DNA of 64,000 nucleotides from an uncultured cyanobacterium (GTDB lineage Bacteria > Cyanobacteriota > Cyanobacteriia > Pseudanabaenales > Pseudanabaenaceae), in contig OY969811.1 of NCBI GenBank assembly GCA_963703315.1, positions 3,744,001-3,808,000 of the forward strand, given 5' to 3'. The position numbers were made by a program, and so were the translations under genes. The notes beneath the pieces are model-generated. The model ran no database searches and was not told where the DNA came from. It was given only the letters and a program-made list of their open reading frames with translations. Positions within the stretch are counted from its first letter, which is position 1, and every line of letters begins with the position of its first letter. Shown here in pieces: positions 6,369 to 63,998 of the stretch.

Positions 6369-6483
6369 AGAGTTTTGAAAGTTGGGTGGTTTAATTGCAA
6401 AAATGTTGTGATCGCCTGATTTTGATGCGTAATAGGTGTATTTCATCATAGACTGATTTTAGCTATCCCACCCGCAACTCTGT

Positions 6484-7500
6484 ATGTACCGTAAACGATT
6501 AGTAGCGATCGCCATCTTTATATTGACATTGGTGACATTAATCTTCTTGGCAGAACCAGCTAGAACTAAGGTCATCGCCGATGTCAAGCCGACAGGGACT
6601 CAAGTCAACCCAAAAAACACTAAAAAAATCGCCCAAAATCAAAATCTTAATTTCTCAGCAGCAGTAAATCAGGTTGCTCCAGTATTAGGTTGTGAAATCC
6701 AGCCCCCAGCCAATCCCCCCGATCCATCATTACCCGCAACACTTACTTCTGTTTCCATCACCTTAGATCGGTTTCGCAAACCCTCAATTTCCTCTACATC
6801 TAATATTAATTCTTCTCAAAAAGCGATCGCCTATACCCCTAAAGAAATGATTGCTTTGGCGGCGGCTTCTAACTATGGCGATCGCTATTTCAAGGATTTA
6901 TTTGGTAAACCAGCTAATAGTCAGCCGATTATCGTCCTCCATGAAACAGTCGGATCGGCAAATGGTGTGATTAACTTTTTTCAAGAGTTCCAAACTGATG
7001 AAGATAACCAAGCTAGCTACCATACCTTAATTGCTCTTGATGGAACAATTATCTACTTTGTGCCACCAGATAAACGTGCTTTTGGAGCAGGAAACTCTGT
7101 CTTTGTAAGTTCTTTAGGCAAAGAAGCAGTACAGACAAATCCTCGATATTCCAGTTCTGTCAATAATTTTGCCTATCACATTGCCCTCGAAACTCCTGCG
7201 GATGGAATACATAATGGCTATACCCATAGCGGATATACAGAAGCCCAATATCAATCCTTAGCATGGTTAGTTGCCAAAACAAATGTACCTCTAGAACGGA
7301 TTACCACTCATAGATCGGTAGACCTTTCTGGTTCTCGCATTGATCCACGTAGTTTCGATAAAAATCTCTTCCAAAAGCTACTGAGTGAATATCCTCGAAC
7401 CAATGAAATTATGATTGGTTGTCCATCAACTGTGCCAGATGCCAATGCGCCAACTTCCAAAAAAGTTTTACCAAAGAGTAAGCGATCGCCGTCAAACTAA
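6484..7500 (+). CDS. N-acetylmuramoyl-L-alanine amidase (Amidase_2)
   Basis: IVLHET, SYH, RAFGAG, TTH...DP; N-terminal membrane anchor. Confidence 0.85.
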   Translation: MYRKRLVAIAIFILTLVTLIFLAEPARTKVIADVKPTGTQVNPKNTKKIAQNQNLNFSAAVNQVAPVLGCEIQPPANPPDPSLPATLTSVSITLDRFRKPSISSTSNINSSQKAIAYTPKEMIALAAASNYGDRYFKDLFGKPANSQPIIVLHETVGSANGVINFFQEFQTDEDNQASYHTLIALDGTIIYFVPPDKRAFGAGNSVFVSSLGKEAVQTNPRYSSSVNNFAYHIALETPADGIHNGYTHSGYTEAQYQSLAWLVAKTNVPLERITTHRSVDLSGSRIDPRSFDKNLFQKLLSEYPRTNEIMIGCPSTVPDANAPTSKKVLPKSKRSPSN

Positions 7501-49687: not shown

Positions 49688-51352
49688 CTAATGTTGCAAC
49701 AAGGCAGAACGAGGAATTACCCGCATAATCTCTTTGATAGTTGTTACTCCTTGTAAGACCTTCTCGATCGCGGCAACTCGAAAGGACTGAAAATCGATAC
49801 TGCGTAGGTAAAGATCTAGTTGCGTCGATGTACCTTCATAAATAATTTGACGCATCGTGTCATTGATTTCTAATAGCTCAATCACTGCTTCACGGCCCAA
49901 GTAACCCGTATGAAAACATTTAGGACATCCTTTGCCTTGTCTGCATTTTTCCAAATTAACTGTAGATCGGTCTAATCCAATCACTTTCAATTCGGCATCA
50001 CTAGGGACATATACTTCTGCACAGTGTGGACAAACACGGCGAACAAGGCGCTGAGCAATCACCCCTAACAAAGCATCACTAACTAGACTTGAGCCAAGAT
50101 CTTTAAGTCGAGGGATAGCACTAGGTGCATCGTTGGTATGCATAGTGGTCAAAACCAAGTGACCAGTCAACGCCGCCCGAATTGCAGTTTCTGCCGTCTC
50201 ACTATCGCGCACTTCGCCCACCATAATAATGTCGGGATCTTGGCGGAGAATTGAGCGTAATCCTGCGGCAAACGTCATACCTGCGGCTTCATTGACTTGG
50301 GTTTGAGTAATATTTGACAAGACATACTCCACAGGATCTTCGACAGTAGTGACATTGACGCTTTTAGAGGCAATTACTTGCAAACTGGTATAGAGCGTGC
50401 TAGTTTTCCCAGAACCAGTGGGACCAGTAAAAATGATCATTCCCTGTGGTTGATGTAGCCAGCTTTCATAGGTTTGACGTGACTTTTCCGTAAATCCTAG
50501 ATCGGCAATACTCGAAAAGGGATTTTCTTGTGGAAGTAACCGAATTACAATTTTTTCTCCATTAACGCAGGGAAGTGTACTAACACGCATATCTAATCCC
50601 TTAGCATGATGGTCGTCACTAGTATATTTTTCACCAATACGCCCATCTTGGGGAATCCGACTTTTGGCAATATCCATTTCTGCCATCACTTTAAGCGCAA
50701 CAATAATTTTGCGGCTAATTGCTAAAGGTAATACTTGAACATCTCGCAAAATACCATCAACACGAAAGCGAATCCGTAATCCTTCTTTGGTTGGCTCTAG
50801 ATGAATATCGCTAGCACGGCTCTGCAAAGCACTAGTAATTATTGCCTTGATACGACTGATTTGATCTGCTGCTTTGGAGAGATGCATTTCTGCTGTCTCT
50901 GCGATCGCCATTGGGGCAAGTTCATCGGCAAAGGGAATGTCTGTCTCTGATAGAGAAATGAGATCGTTGCGAATATTTTGTTTGAGAAACCATTCTTGAT
51001 AACTCTTTTTCGTAATTGATACGACTTCAACAGTCATGTCCATCAAGTTACTAATCCTCTTGATGTCCAGTTCTGAAATTGTCTCAGGAACCCCAATGAA
51101 AAAACATTTTTGCCATAATAGAAGTGGGATAGCCTTTGGTAATCCTGTCTGGTTACGAGCCTGACGCAAGAAGAGTCCACTCAATTCTGTGTCCAGCAAA
51201 TTAATGTTTACACTTCCATCTAAATTAACAAGTCTAGTGATTGCTTCTTCACATGATATTTTGCCAGTTTTAAGTAATTGCCAAGGGGTTGAGGGAACAA
51301 TAGATAAATTAGGTGTGGGGGATTTAGCTTGCATAGTTTCTGATAAGTTCAA
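49688..51352 (-). CDS. GspE/PulE/PilB-family secretion ATPase (ATG at 51334 is an alternative start)
   Basis: ASDIHLEP, PQDGR, GPTGSGKT, EDPVE, LRQDPD, TGHLV, two CxxC. Confidence 0.92.
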   Translation of the reverse strand: MNLSETMQAKSPTPNLSIVPSTPWQLLKTGKISCEEAITRLVNLDGSVNINLLDTELSGLFLRQARNQTGLPKAIPLLLWQKCFFIGVPETISELDIKRISNLMDMTVEVVSITKKSYQEWFLKQNIRNDLISLSETDIPFADELAPMAIAETAEMHLSKAADQISRIKAIITSALQSRASDIHLEPTKEGLRIRFRVDGILRDVQVLPLAISRKIIVALKVMAEMDIAKSRIPQDGRIGEKYTSDDHHAKGLDMRVSTLPCVNGEKIVIRLLPQENPFSSIADLGFTEKSRQTYESWLHQPQGMIIFTGPTGSGKTSTLYTSLQVIASKSVNVTTVEDPVEYVLSNITQTQVNEAAGMTFAAGLRSILRQDPDIIMVGEVRDSETAETAIRAALTGHLVLTTMHTNDAPSAIPRLKDLGSSLVSDALLGVIAQRLVRRVCPHCAEVYVPSDAELKVIGLDRSTVNLEKCRQGKGCPKCFHTGYLGREAVIELLEINDTMRQIIYEGTSTQLDLYLRSIDFQSFRVAAIEKVLQGVTTIKEIMRVIPRSALLQH

Positions 51353-51373: not shown

Positions 51374-51400
51374 TTCTGTCGAGTTGATAGGTTCTATGCA
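51374..51400 (-). promoter_or_regulatory. Bipartite motif copy A, upstream of the GspE/PilB ATPase
   Basis: Minus strand TGCATAG-N15-CAGAA. Confidence 0.6.
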
Positions 51401-51502
51401 GACCTTACGAAAAAACTAGCGTCATGCTCATCTAAAATTCGTTATCGCGCCTAGCAAGTAGAAGATGTTTCTACCCATTAACTTGTACTCCTAAAAAAGA
51501 AA

Positions 51503-51558
51503 ATTAGGCAAGTGGTGATGTTTATTGAATTTTCAATAAACATCACCACTTGCCTAAT
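51503..51558. terminator. Long palindrome after the ricin-M23 gene
   Basis: ATTAGGCAAGTGGTGATGTTTATTGAA-tt-TTCAATAAACATCACCACTTGCCTAAT. Confidence 0.7.
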
Positions 51559-51626
51559 CTGTGGAGTAACTTGATGTATATAGTTTGGCTGATGAGAAGC
51601 AGCAAACTTTAAGCTTGCTCAGTATC

Positions 51627-52697
51627 CTAAGGACGTGTGAGGGCTTTTCTAAAGTGATCGTTTACACCAACAACATCTGGTAAATCACCAACTCCTATAA
51701 GCTGAAATCCATTAGCTGCTGTCATGGGGACTGAATTAGCATTACATAATGCATTAGGTCGTCCTTCAATATGAATATGAGAATAGCCACCATTAACAGA
51801 ACTTGCGCGGGAAACAACTCCCAATTGCTGACCAGCATTTACTCTTGCTCCATTAGCTACTTGGCGATCCATGTGACCAATCAATAAAGCACGGTTGTTC
51901 CCAATATCTAAACAAACCAAGTCTCTGTCAACATATCGAGCAGTACCAGCGGACGGAGCTAGAACAGGCTGCCCTGCTGATTTACTAGTATTGCCATCAT
52001 AAGCATAACAACCACTGGAACCAAAATCTTTATTAGTGATTGTGAGATCTAAACCAAAAATACTACGTCCTTTATGGCTAATACCATTGTTCTGATATCC
52101 TTGACAAACAAACCAAGTCTGACCACTTTTAAAAGGCAAGAGAATCTGTCCAGGAGGGGGAGGAACTATCGTTCCTCCGTTAATTTTGAACCTCTGATTC
52201 ACACCAGAATTGCATTGCCAGAGAGTGACTGCACCTCCATCATTACGAGTAGGACTGTCAATGCAGAATCGAACATTATTCCTGATCTCAGAAAGTCTAA
52301 TCTGGACATCACCGTTGGACAGGTTTTCAACATTGAAATTTTGGTCAAGATCATTGGCGTTACAGGGATAAACATTGACCTCAGCCCCATTCCATCGACG
52401 ATAGGCATTTAGGCATTTACCAGTGCTGCGCTGACGTAAAAGTTGACCGCCTCTAGCTCCTTGCAATCTATCAAAGTGTTGATCTGCATCATTAAAGTTG
52501 TGTGTCCAAATAGACATTCTTGGATGCCCGTCAATTAGACGGAAGTTACGATTAGTGTTAAGCGCTTTATTGCTATTATTAATGACAAAAGTTTCGGCAG
52601 ATGCAGCAGCACTGAGAATAGTAACTCCAGCGAGGATCGAAAAAGAACTGGCAACTAGTGCTAAACATTGTTTAGGATTCATAATACCTTTAGCCAT
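51627..52697 (-). CDS. Secreted ricin-B lectin + M23-family peptidase
   Basis: Signal peptide; QxF/CLN/CIDS ricin repeats; H...D (HKGRSIFGLD) and HIH zinc motifs. Confidence 0.8.
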   Translation of the reverse strand: MAKGIMNPKQCLALVASSFSILAGVTILSAAASAETFVINNSNKALNTNRNFRLIDGHPRMSIWTHNFNDADQHFDRLQGARGGQLLRQRSTGKCLNAYRRWNGAEVNVYPCNANDLDQNFNVENLSNGDVQIRLSEIRNNVRFCIDSPTRNDGGAVTLWQCNSGVNQRFKINGGTIVPPPPGQILLPFKSGQTWFVCQGYQNNGISHKGRSIFGLDLTITNKDFGSSGCYAYDGNTSKSAGQPVLAPSAGTARYVDRDLVCLDIGNNRALLIGHMDRQVANGARVNAGQQLGVVSRASSVNGGYSHIHIEGRPNALCNANSVPMTAANGFQLIGVGDLPDVVGVNDHFRKALTRP

Positions 52698-52771
52698 AAT
52701 GATTAATACCTTGAAGTAGATTGAATTAGTTGAAGCAAAATATTAGAGGTGCGATTTTTGAGAGAAAATTG

Positions 52772-53080
52772 TTAGTTAATCCATCGTAGATTTTGAGCTT
52801 GAGAAGAAGAGATGCAAACTACATTTCCATCTTTCTCTCGACATACGACCTGATCGTTTTGAGTAAGAGTTTGCCATTTAGACCAATCGAAAAAGGTTGG
52901 AATAAAACCGACACTCTTATTTTGAGAGGGGTTTTCAATAAGGTTCCCATTAGCATCAGTAAATACAGATTCATCACCACCTCCAGCCAGAGCTTTTGGG
53001 GTATTGAAAATAATGCTAAGAAATCCAATAGATGATAGAAGTAGTAAACTTCTTTTAAGAGATACTTTGTTTGAGTACAT
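52772..53080 (-). CDS. Small secreted hypothetical protein with two Cys
   Basis: Signal peptide ending ALA; SD-like GAGGA upstream. Confidence 0.7.
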   Translation of the reverse strand: MYSNKVSLKRSLLLLSSIGFLSIIFNTPKALAGGGDESVFTDANGNLIENPSQNKSVGFIPTFFDWSKWQTLTQNDQVVCREKDGNVVCISSSQAQNLRWIN

Positions 53081-53160
53081 TCATAGATTCCTCTATATGA
53101 TGGTTAGCAAATTAAATGATTCAATGTTTATGAGTCCTTATTTCAGAACCTACATATTCT

Positions 53161-53186
53161 TTCTGTAAGGATTGAGAAGCTATACA
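53161..53186 (-). promoter_or_regulatory. Bipartite motif copy B
   Basis: Minus strand TGTATAG-N14-CAGAA. Confidence 0.5.
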
Positions 53187-53241
53187 CTGAACTTAAATAT
53201 TTTTTGTTGAGTGGATTTGCTTCATCGCTTACATTTATTTC

Positions 53242-53268
53242 TTCTGTGGAGTTCATGGCACTTATGCA
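53242..53268 (-). promoter_or_regulatory. Bipartite motif copy C
   Basis: Minus strand TGCATAA-N15-CAGAA. Confidence 0.6.
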
Positions 53269-53361
53269 GCGATTAACTAAAAACTTTTTTTACTTGCTTT
53301 GTGAGTTGACAAAAATAGGAGAGTCTACAACCATTGCAGCCTCTCCTATGGGTTTACTAAT

Positions 53362-53571
53362 TTAGCGGAAGCCCTCAATAATGACCAGAATCAAAACTAG
53401 GCAAATCACTATAAACATGGTGCGCCATAGTCCAATTAAAAAGGTGGGTAATATTTCAATAACGATCGCATAGCCACCAAAAACTGTGGGTAAAATAAGA
53501 GCGATCGCTAGTCCTGCGATCGCAAACATCAGAAACTTAAGTAAATGAGGGACAAAACGCAACATAGACAT
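53362..53571 (-). CDS. Small two-TM membrane protein
   Basis: Hydrophobic 69-aa ORF with GGAG SD just upstream. Confidence 0.65.
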   Translation of the reverse strand: MSMLRFVPHLLKFLMFAIAGLAIALILPTVFGGYAIVIEILPTFLIGLWRTMFIVICLVLILVIIEGFR

Positions 53572-53615
53572 AACAACTCCACAGATTGCCTGTTCCGATC
53601 CTTACGAGACTTATA

Positions 53616-53641
53616 TTCTGAGAGGTTATGGTTTTATTGCA
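53616..53641 (-). promoter_or_regulatory. Bipartite motif copy D
   Basis: Minus strand TGCAATA-N14-CAGAA. Confidence 0.5.
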
Positions 53642-53670
53642 TTGCTGATTGAGGCTAATTTGAACCCTAC

Positions 53671-53697
53671 TGCATAAAAGGCGATCGCTGATCAGAA
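53671..53697 (+). promoter_or_regulatory. Bipartite motif copy E, upstream of the sigma-like gene
   Basis: TGCATAA-N15-CAGAA. Confidence 0.6.
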
Positions 53698-53748
53698 TAT
53701 GTAGATGTATAGCTAGAGCGATCGCTTGTTAGCTAAAATATTAGTAAT

Positions 53749-55239
53749 ATGCGATCGCTACAGTCAGTCATTTTTGAGCAGGGAAAGCGCATGAGCTTAG
53801 CAAAACGCAGTTTGAGAAAAAAATTTTCAACATTTAAAGGATCGGGATCGGAATGGAGCAGTCCAAATTCAACGCTACTAAAAAATATAGAAAGACTCCT
53901 AAATTTGGAAGACTTTCGTGATGCTAAGGAAGAAACTGTAGCTCTTTATTTCGTAAAGTGCCTGAGTAGTAGCAATGAAAAAGTTGTTGAACTAAGTCGC
54001 CAACACCTAATTGCTTATGCCCAAGAGCATTGCTATCATGCTTGCAAAGAGCTATGCAAGAAATTTAATAAGAACGAAAAAGACGAGATTTTTGAAGATT
54101 GTTTTCAAGCTGGCAATATGGCAATCTGTCAAGTTAATTTCTTTACTAATTACAGACCACAAAGTGGCAATACACTTGGGACTTACATTAGTAACGCAGT
54201 TAAGAAGAAAGCTATTGAAATCTTGACTGGCGGTGGGAATAATGTCAGAAGTAATTGGGGATTATTAGCTATTGTGTCAAAAAAACAAATAAAAGAAATT
54301 TTACCTTTAATCCCAGAAATATCTTCAGGTCGAGAACAGCAAAACTACATTCAAATACACAAATTCTATAAGGAAATTTGCAAACCTTCAAAAACTGGCA
54401 AGAAAAGAGAAAAACCATCTGAACAACAACTTCAAGCAATTTGTGATTGTTTCAATAAAGTTTACCCTCACAAACTACAAACTGAAGAAGCACTAGAAAT
54501 GCTCCGTGATTGTATTGCTGCACTTAGGGAACAACAGAATTTTATTGACTCACGAGGATTAGATGCGCCATTGGGGGGTGAAGATAATAGTACTTTGCTA
54601 ATTGATACTATCTCATACGATAGTGAGCCAAATATTATCGATGAAGGTGATGATTCTTACTTCGGATCAATTCGTGAAGGATTAGTTCAGATTGTTGCAC
54701 AAGACTTAGACTCGTTGGACAATGATAAACAAGGAAAATTCACTTTTTTGCATGGATTTGATTGTACGACAACTGAAGTTGCGAATCTTTATAAAGTAAA
54801 TCAATCAACTATCTCAAGGCTTTATAATCCAATTGTTGAGTCCTGCTTAAATTACAGCAAAACTTTTGTTAGTGATTTTACTGATGACACATTCTTAATT
54901 AAGGCTTTACGTGATTGGCTGAAGCAACATCTTGCATTTATTTACACTAGTTTGCTTTATGAAGTTGTCGATTCACTGGTTATGAGTCAATTGCATAAGA
55001 CAGAAATATCTTTTTTGAATGATTTGAGAGTAACTGGGAGGACGGAGCAATTGGCGCAAAATTTGAATCAATCAACAGAATATATAAATGAGGAAAGGAA
55101 AAGATTAAAAGATGCAATTACAGGACTGGTAGTTAATCATTTAAAAACCAATTTTAATATCCTTGCACCACTTTATCCTGTAGCTCCAAAAATTGATGAA
55201 TTTATCGATAAGTGGATGTGCGATCGCCCTACCAACTAA
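53749..55239 (+). CDS. Atypical sigma-70-like factor (cyanobacterial, HetZ-like architecture)
   Basis: Region-2-like EDCFQAG...YRPQSGNTLGTY; region-3.2-like GLDAPLGGED; region-4 HTH TTEVANLYKVNQSTISR. Confidence 0.7.
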   Translation: MRSLQSVIFEQGKRMSLAKRSLRKKFSTFKGSGSEWSSPNSTLLKNIERLLNLEDFRDAKEETVALYFVKCLSSSNEKVVELSRQHLIAYAQEHCYHACKELCKKFNKNEKDEIFEDCFQAGNMAICQVNFFTNYRPQSGNTLGTYISNAVKKKAIEILTGGGNNVRSNWGLLAIVSKKQIKEILPLIPEISSGREQQNYIQIHKFYKEICKPSKTGKKREKPSEQQLQAICDCFNKVYPHKLQTEEALEMLRDCIAALREQQNFIDSRGLDAPLGGEDNSTLLIDTISYDSEPNIIDEGDDSYFGSIREGLVQIVAQDLDSLDNDKQGKFTFLHGFDCTTTEVANLYKVNQSTISRLYNPIVESCLNYSKTFVSDFTDDTFLIKALRDWLKQHLAFIYTSLLYEVVDSLVMSQLHKTEISFLNDLRVTGRTEQLAQNLNQSTEYINEERKRLKDAITGLVVNHLKTNFNILAPLYPVAPKIDEFIDKWMCDRPTN

Positions 55240-55283
55240 AACCTAACTTTTTATTTAATTTTATCTAAACAAAACTGAGGTAT

Positions 55284-56744
55284 ATGATGTTAATTCTAAA
55301 AAATGGGCTTGAACTTGAATCTATTCTCGAAGACCAGATATGTTTATCTATTCCTAAAGAATATCAAACAGAAATATGGGATAAACTACAAGGATATTCC
55401 TATCCTACGGCAAAGTGGACAGCTTATCTCAATCGCTTGACTTTAGAGTTTATAATTCCATACTTTAAACAAACCTATGATTGTGAAATAGCACTGGCTC
55501 CAATTCCTAGAAATCCTGATAGTGTTTGGGAATATGTGACAGGCTTTGCGCTGACGATTGACGGTAACCGGGTAATCGTGATTCCTGATGAGACTGATAG
55601 TGATGAGTTTGAGATCCCCTTTGAATGGGTTGATATTCCTTCATGGGCTGGGGAATATTATCTAGCGGTGCAGATCCGTCCTGATAATGGTTGGTTGAGA
55701 GTCTTTGGCTTTACGACACATCAGCAGATTAAACAGAAAGCTGAGTATGACTCTGTGATGAAGACTTACACTTTGTCGCAGGAGCAAATCATTGATGATA
55801 TGGAGGTTTTGTTGACATCATTGGCGATCGCCTCTAACCAAAAAGTAGCAGTCCCCGCACTGACAGTGATCGCCACACCTCAACAGAATCAATATCTGAA
55901 TACTCTTAAACAGCCTAAATTATATTCTCCTCGCCTTGAGCTATCCGCCGAGCATTGGGCAACCGTTGTCAGTGATGATGACTTGCGGGAGAGACTATGG
56001 CAGATGAGAATAATTGAATCATCACGATCGCAGAAAATTGTGCAACAAAAAACAACTTGGCTAAGTCTATTGCGTGAAAAGCAGAAAGTATATGGGGCTT
56101 ACTTTGCTGATGAATTCATGAGAACTAAGGAAGAAATTGCGGCACTATTTAATATTGAACCAGAATTGCAACTTGTAAGGTCAGTAAGACGATCAACGTC
56201 AACTATTGATAACTCAGAGAGAGTTGCAGAATTAATTGCTTGGGATAAATCGGAATCTGATCTAGGTATTAGGCTTGACTTCTTAAAACTCTTAGCAAAA
56301 GTGGGTGAAGGCAGTAATGCAGCAATTGAGTACTTCAGTTCAATACAAGAAAATGAGACAGAGGATCTAACAATTCGCCGTGAGGCTGCAATTTGCTTGA
56401 GTGAGATTGATCCATCTCATCGTAATGCTGGTATCAGGCGGGTACAATTGATCGATATTACTTATCGACTTAAAGATATCAAGCTTTCTTTAGAAGTGAC
56501 GATGATCCCATTTACTCAAGATAGAGCGCACGTTCACTTTCGTTTAACTGCACCAGAAGAAAGTTCTTTGCCAGATGGTCTTGTTTTGGCAGCGATCGAC
56601 CTTGATAGTGATGTAATCTTTGAAGAACATAGTGGAGAATCAGATCCATTTTTGGAGAGAAGTCTTGATGAAGAATATGGTGGATATTTCTACATCAAAA
56701 TAAGTCTTGATGGTGTCAGCGTTCGGTCAGACTTTAGAGTTTAG
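55284..56744 (+). CDS. DUF1822-family protein with HEAT-like insert
   Basis: WTAYLNRL; EIPFEWVDIPSWAGEYYLAVQI; GFTTHQQIK. Confidence 0.8.
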   Translation: MMLILKNGLELESILEDQICLSIPKEYQTEIWDKLQGYSYPTAKWTAYLNRLTLEFIIPYFKQTYDCEIALAPIPRNPDSVWEYVTGFALTIDGNRVIVIPDETDSDEFEIPFEWVDIPSWAGEYYLAVQIRPDNGWLRVFGFTTHQQIKQKAEYDSVMKTYTLSQEQIIDDMEVLLTSLAIASNQKVAVPALTVIATPQQNQYLNTLKQPKLYSPRLELSAEHWATVVSDDDLRERLWQMRIIESSRSQKIVQQKTTWLSLLREKQKVYGAYFADEFMRTKEEIAALFNIEPELQLVRSVRRSTSTIDNSERVAELIAWDKSESDLGIRLDFLKLLAKVGEGSNAAIEYFSSIQENETEDLTIRREAAICLSEIDPSHRNAGIRRVQLIDITYRLKDIKLSLEVTMIPFTQDRAHVHFRLTAPEESSLPDGLVLAAIDLDSDVIFEEHSGESDPFLERSLDEEYGGYFYIKISLDGVSVRSDFRV

Positions 56745-56753
56745 AGGTGTATT

Positions 56754-59270
56754 ATGAAAAGAATCTTTCAAAGCATATCAACTCTGTGGCAAAAATCTTT
56801 TGCTGGTTCTAGCTCACCATCACAAATTTTTCTAGGTTTGAAGGGTGAAGATGTTTTAGAATCGCCCAAAAATCCAAATGAGACTAAAAGTTTATCAGTT
56901 TCATTGTATGAGGGGCATTCTAGGATTATTGAAGATATTAACTTGCCTATTACAAAAGAGCTTTTGGATGTTATCAAACAATTTCCTACTCTTTTGGAAG
57001 GAAGAAATTCAGGCACTCCTAGAAAAGCTAAATCAACTGAAAACGAACAGACTAGCAGTAAGCAAACTGATGCCAGTAGTTCGTCTGATAAAATTGCTGA
57101 AAGGTTAGAGAATGTGATCAATGAATTAACTACTGGTCACAAGGGATTCAGAATAGTAAGAGATAAAATTCGTGACAAATTAGTTAATAGTCAATTGGCT
57201 TATAGTCTGCCACAACCAGAGTTTTTCATTCAATATAAAGATCCCAATATTGCTCAAATTCCATTCCATAAGTGGGAAATCTTAGAATCATTTGAGATCG
57301 AGCCTGTGTTTAGTGAATTTAATGTTAAACTTTGTGATCATTCTTACAGCAAGAGAAAAAATCCTCGCATCCTGATTGTTTTAGGTAATGCGTACAATCA
57401 TGGACAAGATAATCTTAACTTACAGGCTGATATTGAAGAATGGAAAGCTGATTCTCTACCTAATGTGGATATAACAACTATTACACCTTTGAATTATAAA
57501 GATATCGATTCTCAATTATGGGAAAAGAAATGGGACATTTTATATTTTGCAGGTCACAGTGATACTAAAAATGGTGAAACTCTGATTGAGCTTAATAACG
57601 AATTTAAAATAAGTTTAAAAAAACTGCAAGAGGGTCTAAAGATAGCAGTAAAGAAGGGCTTAAAATTAGCTATTTTCAATTCCTGCGTGAGTTTAGGGGC
57701 AGCAGCCGACCTACATCAAGCTGGTGTGCCAGCAGTTATAGCTATGCGTTATGCGATCCCTGATACTGTTGCTCATACTTTTCTGAAATTCTTCTTGCAA
57801 GAACATTTAAACGGAGGTAAATCGGTTAGTGCGGCAGTACAAAGAGTTAGAAAACGTTTTAAAGGGCTTGAAGATCAAGGTGATAAAACCTATATATTCG
57901 CTAGTTGGTTGCCTGTTGTTTTTCAAATTCCTAGTATTGCAAATCCTCCTAGAACTTCGCTGTTGCCAGTAATTGCCACCTCATTTTTTGTAACTTGCCT
58001 AGTTTTCTTTCTCCATACACAAGGCATATTTCAAGGAGCCGAGCTATCTCTATACGATCACATGATGAACTCTCGACCTGCCGAACCTCTCAATCCCAAT
58101 ATAATATTAGTGAAGCCAACACTAGCTGATCAAGTATGGCAGAAAGAACAAGGTGAACAATTGCAGGGGGATGAATCAATAGGTGATAAACATTTATGGA
58201 AACTACTGGAGAAATTAGATGAAGCGAAACCAAGAGTGATTGGTATGGCTCTTTGGCGAGGGTATTCAAAATCCGTAGATCCTGAGAGTAAAAAAAGAAT
58301 TGATAATAGGTTAGCAAGTACTCAATCGCCAATTTTAGTTTCTAATTGTGCAACTAGAACCAAAAATGATGAGCCAGATCGGCTTCCTCCTGAAACTATC
58401 AAACTTGGTCATCCTCATATTGGATTTACAAATTTTTCCATTGATAGATATTTTGACAATACCCTGAGAAGATTAGTATTGATTAGAAGAGATGATCAGA
58501 GTGCTTGCAGTAAACTCACCAATATTTCTTTCCCATTTCAAATTGTCTTAGACTATCTAGGAATATCATTTCAAGAAGTAATAGATGGATTAAAACCTTT
58601 AGAAGGGAAAGTAAGCATTGAGATGAAAGGTGTTTATCTTTCCAATATTACAACAAAGCAAGGTGGGTATCAAGTTAATCCTTCAGATGAAGGATTATCA
58701 AATCAACTAACAATTCTTTTTAATTACAAAAATCATGATGGTTACAGTCCCGATACAGATTACAACCAAATTTTTTCCTTAAAAGAAATTCTTTCCCTTG
58801 ACAAAGAATCATTGAAAGACATGGTTCACGATAAGATAGTTGTAATTGGTGGTTCTGGAGAAGAATCATTTAATTTCCCTTCCAGTAAGAGCAACATTAA
58901 ATCTATTGCACATTCATATGTTCATATTCAAGCTATTGATTATTTGTTGAGAATTTTTAATTCTAAAGGAGCCAAGATATTAGATATTCTCAAAAATAAT
59001 CTATTTCTTTTTTTGTATAGCTTACTTTATATATCGTTTGTATCAATTATCCTACAAATGATAATTCATAAGTTTGATAAACATCAATTTATTTCTTTGT
59101 CCATAGCAATTTTACTCGCCACGCTTATCATTTTTTATACTCATCAAATTATTTTGGCAAAATTATTATTATGGATTCCCTCTATACCAATACTATGGGG
59201 TATTATAGTCTCCAGTTTTGTTCTATCTTTTTACAAATTTATAAACATCTACTACAATAGAAATAATTAG
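56754..59270 (+). CDS. CHAT-TM-CHASE2-3TM membrane protein
   Basis: IPFHKW, catalytic YFAGHS and IFNSC; TM; ELSLYD...RP, PRVIG, LRRLVL, DKIVVIG CHASE2 motifs; three C-terminal TMs. Confidence 0.85.
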   Translation: MKRIFQSISTLWQKSFAGSSSPSQIFLGLKGEDVLESPKNPNETKSLSVSLYEGHSRIIEDINLPITKELLDVIKQFPTLLEGRNSGTPRKAKSTENEQTSSKQTDASSSSDKIAERLENVINELTTGHKGFRIVRDKIRDKLVNSQLAYSLPQPEFFIQYKDPNIAQIPFHKWEILESFEIEPVFSEFNVKLCDHSYSKRKNPRILIVLGNAYNHGQDNLNLQADIEEWKADSLPNVDITTITPLNYKDIDSQLWEKKWDILYFAGHSDTKNGETLIELNNEFKISLKKLQEGLKIAVKKGLKLAIFNSCVSLGAAADLHQAGVPAVIAMRYAIPDTVAHTFLKFFLQEHLNGGKSVSAAVQRVRKRFKGLEDQGDKTYIFASWLPVVFQIPSIANPPRTSLLPVIATSFFVTCLVFFLHTQGIFQGAELSLYDHMMNSRPAEPLNPNIILVKPTLADQVWQKEQGEQLQGDESIGDKHLWKLLEKLDEAKPRVIGMALWRGYSKSVDPESKKRIDNRLASTQSPILVSNCATRTKNDEPDRLPPETIKLGHPHIGFTNFSIDRYFDNTLRRLVLIRRDDQSACSKLTNISFPFQIVLDYLGISFQEVIDGLKPLEGKVSIEMKGVYLSNITTKQGGYQVNPSDEGLSNQLTILFNYKNHDGYSPDTDYNQIFSLKEILSLDKESLKDMVHDKIVVIGGSGEESFNFPSSKSNIKSIAHSYVHIQAIDYLLRIFNSKGAKILDILKNNLFLFLYSLLYISFVSIILQMIIHKFDKHQFISLSIAILLATLIIFYTHQIILAKLLLWIPSIPILWGIIVSSFVLSFYKFINIYYNRNN

Positions 59271-59306
59271 TTATCCTTGACACGAGACTACATCTAAAAT
59301 AATTCT

Positions 59307-60134
59307 ATGGCTAGTAACATTTTCAAATTTCTTACTAAACACCCAACTGCCATCAAAATTCTATGTGTATCGATATACATGATTTTATTCAGTTTTATAC
59401 TAACTAAAGAAGATACTTTTGCAAATAAGAAGACCAAACCTTCACGTAGTCTACCAATTAAGTCAGTCGTATCAGATGGAAGCCAAGGTAGAACAAGAGG
59501 TGAATGCTTGATTATCCCAATCATTCCAATAACCGAAGTATCTATTACTCATTTGTCTAATCCGTTTATTTGGGTGTATGTAGTACCGCCCAAAACAACA
59601 AGTAATAATGAGCGGGCTAAGGTAGATATATTCTATTCTGATTCCAATCAAACTATAGGTTCAGAACCACAGTATATTAATACTAATGAGCCACAGTTCC
59701 TTAGATTCCAGATCCCTATTACCAGAAAGAAAGAACTTCAAAATAAACTGGAAGTAGATAAAGAGTATGATTTCAACATTAGATGTAATGGAGATGGCAA
59801 CTCTATCATTGTAGCAGTTCAGAAAAAGAATAGTAATATTTCGTTTGCTAATCTGCCATTAGATAAGCGCGTAGTAGAATTTAGCAAGCAGACTTGGTGG
59901 GCTGAGACTGTAGATGCTCTGTTTGATAAAGAATTTTTATGTAAAGATAAACCAAACACAGTAGAGCTATTTGATGATCTTGTTCGTAATAAGCTACTAA
60001 TTGAAGATGTATTCAATAAACCAGTTCGAGCAATAGCAGCAAATCCTACTGAAGATGTTGATATTGTGAATATTGATAGGATGGTTAGAACATTCAATGA
60101 AGCCTATTCTAAGAAGATCTGTATCCCAAAGTAA
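59307..60134 (+). CDS. DUF928-like exported protein
   Basis: N-terminal hydrophobic segment; GRTRGEC, THLSNPFIWVYV, WWAETVDAL. Confidence 0.65.
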   Translation: MASNIFKFLTKHPTAIKILCVSIYMILFSFILTKEDTFANKKTKPSRSLPIKSVVSDGSQGRTRGECLIIPIIPITEVSITHLSNPFIWVYVVPPKTTSNNERAKVDIFYSDSNQTIGSEPQYINTNEPQFLRFQIPITRKKELQNKLEVDKEYDFNIRCNGDGNSIIVAVQKKNSNISFANLPLDKRVVEFSKQTWWAETVDALFDKEFLCKDKPNTVELFDDLVRNKLLIEDVFNKPVRAIAANPTEDVDIVNIDRMVRTFNEAYSKKICIPK

Positions 60135-60192: not shown

Positions 60193-61470
60193 CTACCAAG
60201 GGTTCCCGATGAGTGTAAAGGCGCTCCACGAAGATGGATGAGATAGCTTTGGATCTTTGGATAGACTAAGGCTAAGTTGCGTATTTTTTAAAGCATTGGC
60301 TTTGATGATTTTAGTATTAAATTTAAGTTCTTGATATAACTTTTCCATAAAAACAGGGGATTCTTTATCTCCTATTTTCCATAAAGTGCCAATTACAGAC
60401 TGTACACCTATTCTTGCAGCTAATCCTGCAAATCCCTGTTCTGATTTGATATTGCCTTGAGCCGTTTGACAAGCACTAAGAACAAGCATAGCTACTGTAG
60501 GATTATTCCAATTAAATTGACGAATCTCATTAAAACTAAATGAACCATTTTTAAAGTATATTTCTCCAATCCCATTTGTCTCATTAAATTTAGCATGAGT
60601 GGCTAGATGAATAAGACCAAATCCAATCGGATTATATAATTTGTCTTTTACTTGCTCAATATCTTGATTTAAATTTTGTTGTGTCATCCATATTTTAGTA
60701 ATCTTGGTTAGCTCTTCTGGAACACCAGGTAACTGCGTTTGTGATATGGGTTTTTCAAATCTAGACGCTCCAATTGCTAGGAGATTTTTATCGTGTATGC
60801 TAGAGAGCCTTGTATCAGTTAAAGATAAGCTTGGCATTACCCCAACGCTGTAATCCGAAATAATATAATTATTCTGTTCATTGATCAAAGCAGCAAATGG
60901 TGTTTGTCGTAATGCATCAGGTAAGACAAGAGTGAGATTATCAATAGCTTGATTTTTTAAAGAATCATATAATGGCTTGATGAGCCATCGGTATAATTGC
61001 TTAGAGGAATCTATATGCTTTGTTTGATTTCTAGGATTGTAGTTAGATATATTTGTTCTGAAATTCTCGACACGATCTTTTAAATCCTTTCTGCGGATAT
61101 ATTGACCAGAATCTTTAACAGGAATATACGCAGGTTTGCCTTTGGCGGTTACTAGGGTTAGTTCTAGAATATCGCAAGAGTCAACGTCTTTAGTAGTTTC
61201 TAGCTTGACTGGTTCAGGATATGGGAGGGTGGAATTAATTGGAGGATTGTAACAAGGATCTTTAGGATCGCGTTGCGCCTTCCGATCGCCCATTCGATCA
61301 GGAAGGAAAGTTACATAGAGTAAAGCAGGATTCACTCCAGTTTCATTTTGCACACGGCGCAAGGTTTCTTGGATTTCTGCAAGTGTCATCACCTTAACTG
61401 GTTTGAGATCGGGAATAGAGTCGCTGAAAAACTTTTCAAACTCTCTGGTGTAAAACTCTTCGGGGGGAAG
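60193..61470 (-). CDS. CHAT domain; C-terminal part of a haemagglutinin-CHAT fusion split by a frameshift
   Basis: LYRWLIKP, PFAAL, catalytic IHLATHA and LVLSACQTA, GTLW, WSAFTLIGNPW; frame is open upstream of the called GTG as PEEFYTREFEKFF. Confidence 0.8.
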   Translation of the reverse strand, partial: LPPEEFYTREFEKFFSDSIPDLKPVKVMTLAEIQETLRRVQNETGVNPALLYVTFLPDRMGDRKAQRDPKDPCYNPPINSTLPYPEPVKLETTKDVDSCDILELTLVTAKGKPAYIPVKDSGQYIRRKDLKDRVENFRTNISNYNPRNQTKHIDSSKQLYRWLIKPLYDSLKNQAIDNLTLVLPDALRQTPFAALINEQNNYIISDYSVGVMPSLSLTDTRLSSIHDKNLLAIGASRFEKPISQTQLPGVPEELTKITKIWMTQQNLNQDIEQVKDKLYNPIGFGLIHLATHAKFNETNGIGEIYFKNGSFSFNEIRQFNWNNPTVAMLVLSACQTAQGNIKSEQGFAGLAARIGVQSVIGTLWKIGDKESPVFMEKLYQELKFNTKIIKANALKNTQLSLSLSKDPKLSHPSSWSAFTLIGNPW

Positions 61471-63998
61471 GGGGCGCGATCGCCTTCATCTACCCACTGC
61501 ACTCTAGGCGGCTCTTTGAGTGGCTGTGTTGCTAAGAAAATCGTGAAATTTGGGGCGGTGATAATCTGGATATTACCCTGTGTATAGGGACCTGGAAACG
61601 ATCGCGCTGTAAAGATGGTGTTTCCTGCGCCAGTAGTCAGAACTCCATCAGTTCCATTAATCAAGGAGCTAAAGACATTAAAAGGCTCAAACCTTGTGCC
61701 GCCGTCATGACGAATGATAATCACCCCGTCTCCTGCTGTCCCTGCGGTACTGATACTGGCTACCAATCCATTTTGGTCAATGAAAGTACCACTAATCCTA
61801 ACAAACCGATTCGATGTCAGATCGACAGTCCCGCCAACACCTCCAAACCCTTGAGCATTGATCGCCCCAGTGAATATATCTAAGAGAGGATCGAGGAAGA
61901 TATTACCGCCACTGCCTGATAATCCCACAGCACTGAGAGTTCCAGTTGTGATGGAGGTGAGTGCTTGGATGTTGATGTTACCGCCCGATGTGCCATTGAC
62001 ATTGAGATTGCCTGTATTGACGATGCCCTGTGGTGCTAATAGGGTCAGGCTATTCCCAGCCCCCACCGCAGAGGCGAGGTTGATATCTTGAGTGGTGACG
62101 TTGCCTGTGGCTGCGTTGATGGTGAGATTGGCGGCGGTTCCTGCTTGAATGTTGATGGGCGCAACAATATTAATATCGCCATTGAGGGTGCTGAGGGTGG
62201 AAGTACCTGTAATTGTAGTGGGATTGGAGATCTGCAAGCCATTAGTTGTGTTAATGCCGCCTGACATAGAGATATTGCTGGCATTGAGGCTGATGGTAAT
62301 TAGGCGATCGCTTGCTCCAAGTGCGCCATTGAGATTAATGTTGCCAGTACCAGCATCGAGTGTTAATCCAAAGTTATTTCCAGTCAGACTATTAACAGTT
62401 CCATTGGTGCTAATGTCGCCGTTATTGCTATTGATTGCGATGTTTGTGCCAAGTCTTGTATTGCCCGTGAGTGTTAGTGCTTGACCAGTAGTTGTGATAT
62501 CAGCATTGAGATTAATCCCTACTGGAGATATTAAAGTGGCTGAAGTGTTGAATGTGATCGGAGCAGTAACTGAGATACTGCCAACACTAGCATCACCAAT
62601 GGAAAGCATTACACCAGTAATCGAGGCGATCGCAGTTGATGTCAGGTTAAATGAGTTGGAATCTGTACCACCTAAAACGATATTTCGATTTGCTGAACTA
62701 GGTTTTAAGATGAGAGTATTCGTTCCAGTAATCGGTGCGGTTAAATTGATCTGATCAGCAATCGCTGATACAGCATTACCTCCTGCGGCAAGTCCTCCAT
62801 TGAGTGAGATAGTTCCAGTTCCTGCATTGAGGGTTGATGCTGCTGTAGTAGTTAGCAATGAGTTAAGAGTAATATCGCTATTAGCTGTAGTGATATTGCC
62901 TTTCAGGTTTGTGGTTTGGGCGGCTATCGTCACTCCTGTGAGGGGAGTTGTACTTCCAATTGCTCCTTGTAAGTCAACAGTTCCTGTATTGGCGATTATA
63001 TTGAGAATTTTTGCGCCATCAATGGTACTAGTAAAGGTGATATTTCCGCTATTTATCGCACTAGTATTTAGGGTGACTTGAGGTTGGATTTTAGAAGCCA
63101 AAGATGTATCTAAGTTTGGATTTAGCAATGGATCTAGAATAAATTTGCCATCAAAAGTAATATTTCCTCCTGCTATGCCTAAACTAGAACCTGTGACTAT
63201 GGATTGTACAAAAGTAGGATTACTGGAATCTTGAACAAAATAAGCACCGATAGTTCCATTTCTTGCACTTAGAGAAACATCTCCACCTCTACCAGAATAT
63301 GAGCTAGAGTTTAAGTTAAATACGGTGATATTGCCTTCAGAACTAGTGATATTTATATTACTTGCGGTCTGATTGTTGTTATAACTTACATCTGTGGCGA
63401 TGCCTCCTAGTCCAGTAACGATATCTCCTTTTGCTTCTATTCTCACCGTTCCAGAATTACGGATTGCAGTACTTGCTGCTGCTACGCTTTGACTATCAGC
63501 ACCAGCATCTAAGATAGAGTTACCGTTCATCGTGATAGAGCCATTGGGACTCAATAACTCTATATTGCCTGCCCGAAGACTAACGGCTATATCTGTACTT
63601 TGGGGAAAGGTCTCAACCCCACATTTACCTGCTAATGTAGTTGCACAACTAAACAAGATATTTCCATTATTTGCTTTGACAGATACATCTGCTCCATTAC
63701 CAGATTGAGAAAATGCTCTTAATAGACCCTCAACAGTTACACTTCCTGCGGATTCAATGCTAATTTTCCCAGCATTGCCACCCAATACAGAGGCAGGTGT
63801 AGATATAGAGGAGGCGGTTGTATCAATGGATGTTACCGTAATATTTCCTGTTGTAGTCTTGAGACTAAATGCTCCTGAATCTCTGCCTCCAGAAGTCTGT
63901 AAGCCCCCAGAAGTTGCTGAAGCATTGTTTACATTAAGATTGATATTGTCAAAAGCATTAATAGATACTGCTCCCCCCTGACCACTGGCGGATCTGGT
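61389..63998 (-). CDS. Filamentous-haemagglutinin-like beta-helix exoprotein (partial; starts beyond the window)
   Basis: Gly/Asn/Thr/Ile-rich GGNI.L repeats; frame open to the window end. Confidence 0.85.
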   Translation of the reverse strand, partial: TRSASGQGGAVSINAFDNINLNVNNASATSGGLQTSGGRDSGAFSLKTTTGNITVTSIDTTASSISTPASVLGGNAGKISIESAGSVTVEGLLRAFSQSGNGADVSVKANNGNILFSCATTLAGKCGVETFPQSTDIAVSLRAGNIELLSPNGSITMNGNSILDAGADSQSVAAASTAIRNSGTVRIEAKGDIVTGLGGIATDVSYNNNQTASNINITSSEGNITVFNLNSSSYSGRGGDVSLSARNGTIGAYFVQDSSNPTFVQSIVTGSSLGIAGGNITFDGKFILDPLLNPNLDTSLASKIQPQVTLNTSAINSGNITFTSTIDGAKILNIIANTGTVDLQGAIGSTTPLTGVTIAAQTTNLKGNITTANSDITLNSLLTTTAASTLNAGTGTISLNGGLAAGGNAVSAIADQINLTAPITGTNTLILKPSSANRNIVLGGTDSNSFNLTSTAIASITGVMLSIGDASVGSISVTAPITFNTSATLISPVGINLNADITTTGQALTLTGNTRLGTNIAINSNNGDISTNGTVNSLTGNNFGLTLDAGTGNINLNGALGASDRLITISLNASNISMSGGINTTNGLQISNPTTITGTSTLSTLNGDINIVAPINIQAGTAANLTINAATGNVTTQDINLASAVGAGNSLTLLAPQGIVNTGNLNVNGTSGGNINIQALTSITTGTLSAVGLSGSGGNIFLDPLLDIFTGAINAQGFGGVGGTVDLTSNRFVRISGTFIDQNGLVASISTAGTAGDGVIIIRHDGGTRFEPFNVFSSLINGTDGVLTTGAGNTIFTARSFPGPYTQGNIQIITAPNFTIFLATQPLKEPPRVQWVDEGDRAPFPPKSFTPESLKSFSATLFPISNQLR

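Follow-up and report, generated by a model that had tools for sequence, protein, structure and literature searches.

A repeated two-block, promoter-like motif accompanies a divergent sigma-70-family gene in a cyanobacterial genome

The stretch of DNA analysed here, a 64-kilobase (kb) window, is part of the cyanobacterial genome G000, a single contig of 4,565,174 nucleotides (nt) with 42% G+C. It carries a gene for a divergent sigma-70-family protein and, within 2.3 kb beside it, five copies of a two-block motif in which a TGCATA-like block is followed at a nearly constant distance by CAGAA. The sigma gene opens a plus-strand unit that continues with genes for a DUF1822 protein, a CHAT protease fused to a CHASE2 sensor domain and a DUF928 protein, with gaps of 44, 9 and 36 nt between them. 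The minus strand carries genes for a small membrane protein, a small secreted protein, a lectin-bearing cell-wall hydrolase and a secretion ATPase. We refer to these genes together as the island; coordinates are collected in Table 1.

A sequence-only reading of the window had listed copies A to E, held that each is intergenic and points at the next gene, and noted ATGTA behind B, C and E. All five copies were read at the same coordinates and on the same strands, gene calls bear out their placement, and ATGTA is indeed present 2-8 nt downstream of the three. Intergenic DNA makes up 32% of the 2.3-kb stretch, yet 5/5 motif copies are intergenic and face the next gene. Copies B and C are in tandem, with C 81 nt upstream of B, and D and E stand back to back. 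Copy B is likely the proximal promoter of the secreted-protein and lectin-hydrolase unit, and copy E is likely the autoregulated promoter of the sigma operon.

Table 1. Motif copies, genes and other features of the island, and the unlinked motif copy F (window positions unless a contig is given; aa, amino acids).
Feature	Position	Strand	Sequence or family match	Context
Motif copy A	51374..51400	-	TGCATAG-N15-CAGAA	CAGAA to ATG (51334) of the GspE/PilB-like ATPase gene, 39 nt
Motif copy B	53161..53186	-	TGTATAG-N14-CAGAA	80 nt before the 102-aa secreted-protein gene
Motif copy C	53242..53268	-	TGCATAA-N15-CAGAA	161 nt before the start codon of the 102-aa gene
Motif copy D	53616..53641	-	TGCAATA-N14-CAGAA	44 nt before the 69-aa membrane-protein gene
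Motif copy E	53671..53697	+	TGCATAA-N15-CAGAA	93 nt before ATG (53791) of the sigma gene (482-aa form)
Motif copy F	G000:C1:4557148-4557174	+	strict-pattern match	intergenic, 759 kb from the island
Sigma-70-family gene	53791..55239	+		482 aa; an in-frame ATG at 53749 gives 496 aa; N-terminal, central and C-terminal extra segments
DUF1822 protein gene	55284..56744	+	Pfam DUF1822 8.6e-62	C-terminal HEAT-type repeats
CHAT (caspase-like) protease fused to membrane CHASE2 sensor domain	56754..59270	+	Pfam CHAT 2.7e-12, CHASE2 7.5e-25
DUF928 protein gene	59307..60134	+	Pfam DUF928 8.3e-07	last gene of the four-gene unit
69-aa hydrophobic membrane protein	53362..53571	-		gene behind D; in G062 and G028, truncated in G019
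102-aa protein, signal-peptide-like N-terminus	52772..53080	-		first gene behind B and C; 108-aa orthologous ORFs in G062 and G014
Ricin-type lectin + M23 peptidase (cell-wall hydrolase type)	51627..52697	-	Pfam Ricin_B_lectin 1.9e-11, Peptidase_M23 1.3e-07
Perfect 27-bp hairpin + T-run, terminator-like	51503..51558	-		between the hydrolase gene and copy A; single copy in G000
Accessory GspE/PilB-family secretion ATPase	49688..51334	-	Pfam T2SSE 9.9e-123	gene behind A

The genome-wide and shuffled-background comparison that the sequence-only reading had called for places the motif far above chance. In the window the strict pattern TGCATAR-N15-CAGAA matches 3 times, whereas 100 dinucleotide shuffles average 0.03 matches and 0/100 reach 3; over both strands of the whole 4,565,174 nt it has 5 matches, 3/5 of them within this 2.3 kb. 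Relaxing the pattern to TGYATAR-N14-15-CAGAA yields 10 matches genome-wide (4/10 at this locus), and TGYAWWR-N14-15-CAGAA yields 34 (5/34 at this locus). The Poisson P for clustering in 2,324 nt lies between 1e-9 and 1e-11; the pattern was picked after the data had been seen, and these values are upper bounds on the significance. One strict match outside the island is copy F, and the remaining one (4268930), which lies inside an open reading frame (ORF), is probably due to chance. No longer repeat common to the copies was found, so they did not arise by duplication of a segment, and no Rfam family scored above its gathering score between 49000 and 61000.

The close sigma subfamily was sought in 48 genus genomes, 71 order genomes and a sample of 401 class genomes, and the motif in the 48 of the genus. 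Orthologues of copies A-F occur in 6/48 genus genomes, and the other matches in the genus are single ones, mostly at one site in a conserved Uma2 gene. All five copies A-E have orthologues in G062 (E identical, A at L034:6386-6412), while G028 has E with 2 changes, both in the spacer, together with D, a C-like copy whose spacer is 2 nt shorter, and two tandem copies of F. The genus-wide pattern scan picked up the motif in three further genomes where the sigma was not detected: G019 has A (L154:3631-3657) and B, with C degraded to CGCATAG ... CAGTA, G014 has C and B, and G067 has F. Copy E precedes the sigma gene in 3/3 genomes that have this sigma.

When the 21 sites of the six genomes were aligned on CAGAA, this block was invariant (21/21), as were the T, G and A of TG.A, the C between them being kept in 20/21. 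A C five bases before CAGAA recurs in 19/21 sites and a T nine bases after it in 18/21. The T of TGCATA and the C of CAGAA lie 22 nt apart in 12 sites, 21 nt in 8 and 20 nt in 1. Spacers and flanks vary freely: in copy A of G019, read against the aligned sites, the spacer is almost wholly changed while TGCATA and ACAGAATGAA are intact. Judged by this conservation, A-F are real, conserved two-block sites (TGCATA, 15-16 nt, CAGAA), and the 21-site pattern is the kind of footprint left by two contact blocks whose distance can flex a little, as in sigma-70-family promoters.

Copies A-E do not pass as sigma-70 promoters of the standard kind. Our scan asked for at least 9/12 consensus positions of TTGACA-N16-18-TATAAT, with A2 and T6 present in the -10, and it reported none of copies A-E. 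Between 51300 and 53850 it gave 4 matches against 7.5 in shuffles, none of them on the minus strand of the intergenic regions, and the sole plus-strand match upstream of the sigma gene (9/12) lies about 400 nt before the ATG.

Two observations concern the motif pattern itself. The spacer of copy E, unlike those of the other copies, is itself conserved between G000 and G028 as GATCGCTGATCAGAATAT (window 53671-53712, plus strand), which contains the palindrome CTGATCAG and two GATC; the sequence hints at extra control on the autoregulated promoter. The G000 genome is rich in GCGATCGC palindromes. Separately, a recurrent match, TGCATAGCGATCGCCAATTCTTCAGAATAAA, present in 13 genomes of the genus, was rejected as a promoter: where checked (G006, L155:5294-5324) it lies antisense inside a conserved Uma2-family gene, so its recurrence stems from coding conservation of that gene. 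Conserved pattern matches can thus be coding sequence.

The gene downstream of copy E encodes an unusual sigma factor. Nothing in Pfam matched the protein above thresholds, and in NCBIfam its score against TIGR02937 straddles the cut-off of 42.9 (the 482-aa form scores 43.0 bits and the 496-aa form 42.8), with model positions 3-160 stretched over residues 74-351; the relatives P0012 and P0045 score 105 and 82.6 bits. HMMER searches of 1.84 billion representatives returned 147 relatives, 4 of them below 1e-30, which form a very divergent family of 400-500 aa, and some are named sigma-70 family factors by NCBI. A profile of 63 relatives searched against the PDB matched FliA (7.5e-14), SigF, cyanobacterial SigA (sigma3-4) and RpoS (sigma2); profile positions 72-150 align with sigma2 of the RpoS and SigA chains, and the FliA match over positions 297-369 marks the sigma4 helix-turn-helix. 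The AF2 model has a pLDDT of 88.4, and the 50 Foldseek matches in the PDB that were listed are all sigma factors, with alignments of 309-398 columns to sigma factors in polymerase complexes at probability 0.89-1.0. By sequence and predicted fold, the neighbour gene thus encodes a genuine sigma-70-family protein.

The sequence-only reading had spoken of an atypical sigma, with autoregulation as seen for sigmas of the extracytoplasmic function (ECF) type. Membership of the sigma-70 family held, and a likeness to ECF sigmas needs qualifying: the best matches are FliA/SigF-type and primary sigmas, and the protein exceeds a minimal ECF sigma by about 70 N-terminal residues, about 120 residues between sigma2 and sigma4 and a helical C-terminal segment (366-477), three extra segments that resemble those of sigma-HetZ. 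The gene is single-copy in G000, and its product is the only DNA-binding candidate among the island genes scanned with Pfam and NCBIfam. Relatives of the sigma weakly match a type III-E CRISPR sigma model (1e-8, below the cut-off).

The close subfamily of this sigma is rare. Beyond G000 it was found only in G062 and G028 (3/71 order genomes and 3/401 class genomes, G000 included); a word-based search returned 5 proteins and a metagenome scan 2 distant loci. We also surveyed 80 loci of distant homologues (22-37% identity), where TG[CT]A[AT][AT]-N15-16-CAGAA has 19 matches in 1.19 Mb, none of them lying on the sigma gene's strand in the 700 nt ahead of the sigma match. The motif is thus peculiar to the close subfamily. 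An upstream motif common to the whole family was sought among these loci and dropped, as only the conserved leader of a divergent gene emerged, at Nostoc-type loci. There (L035-L092) a conserved CCTTGTAGTAAAGTTTGTG sits about 90 nt upstream of the estimated sigma start, beside the start of a divergent small secreted-protein gene, and it is probably the leader of that gene at many loci of heterocyst formers.

Copy F connects the motif to a gene far from the island. It lies 134 nt upstream of a very long ORF that contains 29 stretches of RTX repeats together with a peptidase region of the M10/reprolysin type. Both its tandem counterparts in G028 and the copy kept in G067 belong to the same setting, those of G028 standing before the orthologous RTX gene. 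Orthologues of this gene with the same conserved leader occur in G070, G064 and G001 without copy F, and no sigma of this subfamily was found in these three genomes. Further upstream in G070 lies a TTGACA-N17-TATGTT/TATGGT-type promoter (10/12 positions in the scan), and G064 and G001 likewise have TTGACA-N17-TATGTT or TATGGT when read by eye. At the RTX gene, the motif therefore occupies the place of a standard promoter. As a separate observation, B (window 53125-53160, minus strand) and F (L118:3176-3210) share a further element right after the motif, ATGTRGGTTCTGAAATA followed by GRACTC, which contains an inverted CAGAA (TTCTG). It is also present at B of G014, F of G067 and F2 of G028, is partly altered at B of G062 and is lost at B of G019; from its sequence, it may be a leader or operator common to two secreted-enzyme units.

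Together, these data make it fairly probable that the motif is a private promoter read by the adjacent sigma. It is a directional element whose two blocks are spaced as in a promoter, it is restricted to the island and the one unlinked gene behind F, and it stands before the sigma gene wherever this sigma occurs. The sequence-only reading had gone further and named it the autoregulated promoter of the adjacent sigma; the promoter-like features and the position of E stood up, whereas recognition by this particular sigma is what we infer from them. Several observations weigh against that link. In G019 (96% complete) neither the sigma family nor DUF1822 was found, yet A and B stand before intact lectin-M23 hydrolase and ATPase genes; G014 (99% complete) keeps C and B and G067 (91% complete, 750 contigs) keeps F, with no sigma detected in either. 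The association of motif and sigma across genomes (3/3 vs 3/45) reflects mostly physical linkage on one island and is not independent, and that of F with the sigma among genomes with the RTX gene (2/2 sigma-bearing genomes vs 1/4 without detected sigma, P = 0.4) rests on counts that are too small. The sigma alleles of G062 and G028 are 36-37% identical to that of G000 and 49% to each other and share the same motif. With alleles so diverged behind one motif, specificity would rest on few conserved positions, such as V.Q..ISR in sigma4, which is conserved among the alleles. CAGAAT agrees with TATAAT at 4/6 positions by eye, and in G000 copy F overlaps a 9/12 sigma-70-like match, TTGACT-N16-GAAAAT, that is made of other bases. 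Finally, a weight matrix gave 3 matches at >=20 bits beyond A-F, mostly inside ORFs, and 4 Markov-simulated genomes gave 1, 3, 10 and 4, so that there is no excess and the regulon is small. Among the genomes that keep the motif without the sigma, G019 also has a truncated small membrane gene and a degraded copy C, and in G014 the ATPase gene is in pieces, a state that looks like decay after loss.

Part of this evidence would also suit a promoter class read by a sigma or activator encoded elsewhere, for example a primary or group-2 sigma with CAGAAT as a weak -10 and a helper at TGCATA, the island sigma controlling something else or nothing nearby. The copies before intact genes in G019 and F in G067, the very divergent sigma alleles behind one unchanged motif, the resemblance of CAGAAT to TATAAT and the sigma-70-like match at F all fit such a reader. 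A host-wide factor, however, should have sites at core genes in all genomes, whereas in the genus scan A-F orthologues are restricted to 6/48 genomes and no other intergenic site recurs; copies A-E fail the sigma-70 scan, the C at the first and the G at the third -10 position are invariant (21/21), and each of the three genomes with the sigma has retained the copy in front of its gene. We therefore regard a reader encoded elsewhere as rather unlikely, though worth keeping in mind. It is less likely again that a repressor or other DNA-binding protein uses the two blocks as its operator, with the real promoters alongside. Extra regulators are plausible, given the conserved E spacer with its palindrome GATCGCTGATCAG and the additional downstream element GGTTCTGAAATA shared by B and F, but the blocks are unlike each other and non-palindromic, always face the gene and tolerate an offset of 20-22 nt as sigma promoters do. 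Moreover, no transcription-factor gene besides the sigma was seen among the island genes scanned, the motif replaces the canonical promoter at the RTX gene, and the consensus scan of the island showed no alternative promoter in the gene direction. Chance likeness, or functionless leftovers of duplicated or mobile sequence, is hardly credible: the pattern was defined post hoc and a degenerate further copy lies at about 51559-51585, but the shuffle and genome-wide counts, the lack of extended similarity among copies and the block-specific conservation over six genomes all speak against it.

The weight matrix was also used to look for further members of the regulon, and these candidates were dropped as no commoner than in the Markov-simulated genomes. 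A reversed-genome control (0 at >=20 bits) is too lenient for this purpose, and the matrix scores of A-F themselves are circular. A weak motif-like site at 55055-55085 on the plus strand, CGCAAAA ... CAGAATATAT, inside the 3' end of the sigma gene and 199 nt before the DUF1822 start, scores 19.1 bits, within the chance range.

The genes downstream of the sigma gene suggest how its activity could be gated. The order sigma, DUF1822, caspase/CHAT is the same in G062 and G028, and the DUF1822 gene is single-copy in G000. In the CHAT protein of G000 and G062 we found a His motif (FAGHS) and a Cys motif (FNSC), which we take to be the catalytic dyad of the protease; residues 1-240, ahead of the CHAT match, have no Pfam match. 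HEAT/alphaRep matches in the DUF1822 protein fall at residues ~300-380. A model of the complex of sigma and DUF1822 reached 0.82 (median; runs at 0.77, 0.82 and 0.89) against 0.00 in the best of 3 controls, with at least 97% contact agreement between runs and a partner pLDDT of at least 83. In calibration, 116/157 solved complexes and 2/215 mismatched pairs reach that mark, a yardstick that is rough here since the alignments were our own. The modelled interface joins residues 13-217 of DUF1822, its N-terminal half, to sigma residues 139-148 (sigma2), 160-224 (central segment), 326-353 (sigma4 helix-turn-helix) and 364-374, and many of the sigma positions that are invariant among alleles fall in these stretches. 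The model supports binding of the sigma by DUF1822, likely as an anti-sigma factor; sigma/anti-sigma complexes have been solved in general, and this likeness may account for part of the model's pass.

If the adjacent sigma does read the motif, the following sequence of events can be proposed. DUF1822 would hold the sigma in anti-sigma fashion over the sigma4 helix-turn-helix, the central insertion and sigma2. By analogy with HetF-PatU3-HetZ, the outward-facing CHASE2 domain would receive a signal and switch on the cytoplasmic CHAT protease; the protease would then cleave DUF1822, and the sigma would be released. Free sigma would then start transcription at E, and so of its own four-gene operon, in positive feedback; at D it would drive the 69-aa membrane protein, at C and B the 102-aa secreted protein and the lectin-M23 hydrolase, at A the GspE-like ATPase, and at F the RTX metalloprotease. 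Assuming the geometry of sigma-HetZ, TGCATA would be the -35 element (about -36 to -30) and AGAA the -10 (-13 to -10), with a start site about 10 nt after CAGAA, on the ATG(T/A) that follows B, C and E.

The gene set itself has been described before and is widespread in cyanobacteria. Kaur et al. (2021) catalogued it computationally as the EACC2-caspase neighbourhood (PMC8195603), with a caspase/CHAT protein of variable C-terminal part, CHASE2 being one form, and genes for a sigma and DUF1822, and proposed that the peptidase becomes active once a stimulus is sensed, whereupon the sigma regulates many genes. As far as we followed it, that account names no promoter, target genes or test; here we add a promoter-like motif, six putative targets, a predicted interface and an allelic mosaic. 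Open-access papers and bioRxiv turned up no experimental study of the sigma, DUF1822 and CHAT set beyond the HetZ pathway. The island is a presumably protease-gated sigma module of an already catalogued kind, tested for HetZ, whose putative promoter set and candidate targets are read here. Its output side is legible from the DNA: a promoter-like motif of 27 nt stands before six candidate targets, and modelling predicts how sigma and inhibitor would meet. A catalogued gene neighbourhood is thereby made open to experiment.

The HetZ pathway is the closest parallel in layout and the likely working model for the island. In Anabaena PCC 7120, HetZ is sequestered by PatU3, which the CHAT domain of HetF in turn cleaves after Arg117 (PMC9457339). 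HetZ is a sigma with three inserted domains that reads TCCGGA at -35 to -30 and TGnA at -13 to -10, where T-13 is replaceable by A and the G is essential, and PatU3 inhibits it through contacts with two insertions and sigma4 (PMC13342950). The likeness seen is one of layout: each system pairs a CHAT protease with an inhibitor that binds the sigma, as predicted here for DUF1822, and each sigma carries additional segments ahead of sigma2, between sigma2 and sigma4 and behind sigma4. PatU3 contacts sigma4 and insertions as DUF1822 does in our complex model, and the promoter geometry is similar, with a -35 hexamer, about 16 nt and a short G-containing -10. The sequences are not: TGCATA does not match TCCGGA, and AGAA fits TGnA only with A for T-13. 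Unlike HetF, the island protease is fused to a membrane CHASE2 domain and encoded in the same operon as the sigma, and its outputs are secreted enzymes instead of the heterocyst genes of HetZ, in a host whose relatives are named Pseudanabaena. No HetZ or PatU3 name came up in NCBIfam at E values up to 10, and no HetZ chain is among the best 60 of 96 PDB profile matches or the 50 Foldseek matches listed.

Other systems resemble the island more loosely. Autoregulated ECF sigmas also drive their own operon and a small regulon from a private two-block promoter. Their consensus has AAC in the -35 and CGT in the -10, whereas the blocks here are TGCATA and CAGAA, with AAC in some spacers only; the present protein is also about three times as long as a minimal ECF sigma, and its profile is nearest to FliA/SigF-type and primary sigmas. 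Craspase-Csx30-RpoE and CalpL-CalpT-CalpS are reportedly CRISPR-linked protease/sigma relays that sense RNA or cyclic nucleotides in the cytoplasm. In DdvA-DdvS of Myxococcus xanthus, the CHAT-type domain of DdvA is periplasmic, has an incomplete active site and shares its polypeptide with the anti-sigma (PMC11506125). In DdvA-DdvS and the CRISPR relays, as described, a dedicated sigma for conflict-related genes is set free when an anti-sigma-type partner cleaves or is cleaved, a principle proposed for the island too; unlike the island, they involve neither DUF1822 nor CHASE2.

Comparison of the window (53800-60134) with the corresponding loci of G062 (L034) and G028 (L033) revealed a mosaic. 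The DNA of G000 and G062 is 82-86% identical in the flanks and 92% identical in the promoter region (53080-53800), while in the body of the sigma ORF (53800-55177) DNA similarity was not detectable (36% at the protein level). The first half of the DUF1822 gene is again 82% identical and the remainder strongly diverged, CHAT-CHASE2 proteins share 38% identity, DUF928 is strongly diverged, and the hydrolase gene is replaced. From these comparisons it looks as though the sensor-sigma cassette and the cargo are exchanged as alleles or evolve fast while the promoters stay fixed, a contrast that offers a lead on how such modules evolve.

The cargo behind B and C differs accordingly between genomes, with lectin and M23 in G000, ricin, B_lectin and CHAP in G062, and M23 and ricin in G019. 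Both the 102-aa protein and the lectin-M23 hydrolase of G000 start with signal-peptide-like segments, and neither the 102-aa nor the 69-aa protein matched a Pfam or NCBIfam family. The ATPase is a third GspE/PilB paralogue, and copies with at least 73% identity occur in 7/48 genus genomes, among which the motif precedes only those of G000, G062 and G019. Read from sequence, the outputs, RTX protease included, are export-related and lytic, and such targets (lectin-bearing peptidoglycan hydrolases, the RTX protease and a secretion ATPase) suggest attack on or lysis of cells, not housekeeping. We offer only tentatively the further idea that the island serves a filamentous cyanobacterium as an inducible weapon or as a switch for self-lysis. 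On that speculative account, a fast-diverging receptor-caspase/inhibitor/sigma cassette, allele-swapped between species behind fixed promoters, would sense an outside cue and launch, via one private promoter, an interchangeable arsenal: cell-wall hydrolases guided by lectins (M23, CHAP) and an RTX metalloprotease, along with a small membrane protein and a secretion ATPase dedicated to the task. New effector genes could then enter the response by gaining TGCATA-N16-CAGAA, as the RTX gene appears to have done.

Some minor features of the locus remain. Before the hairpin listed in Table 1 lies a degenerate seventh motif-like copy, at about 51559-51585 on the minus strand, with counterparts in G019 (L154:560-650) and G062 (L034 ~6480-6590). 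Each bears a different defect: TATACAT-N14-CAGAT in G000, TGCATAA-N14-TAGAA in G062 and TGCTTAA-N14-CAGAA in G019. In G019, which lacks the sigma side of the locus, the hairpin element sits right at the junction, and it could be a tiny hairpin transcript or a relic. Beyond the DUF928 gene, a 399-aa CHAT-domain ORF (60193-61392, minus strand) shares 4 nt with the end of a second ORF (>869 aa; 61389-63998, minus strand) that runs off the window and has no Pfam match. G062 has instead a single 1,053-aa ORF ending in the CHAT domain (L034:15494-18655), and the pair in G000 may be a split gene or two coupled genes.

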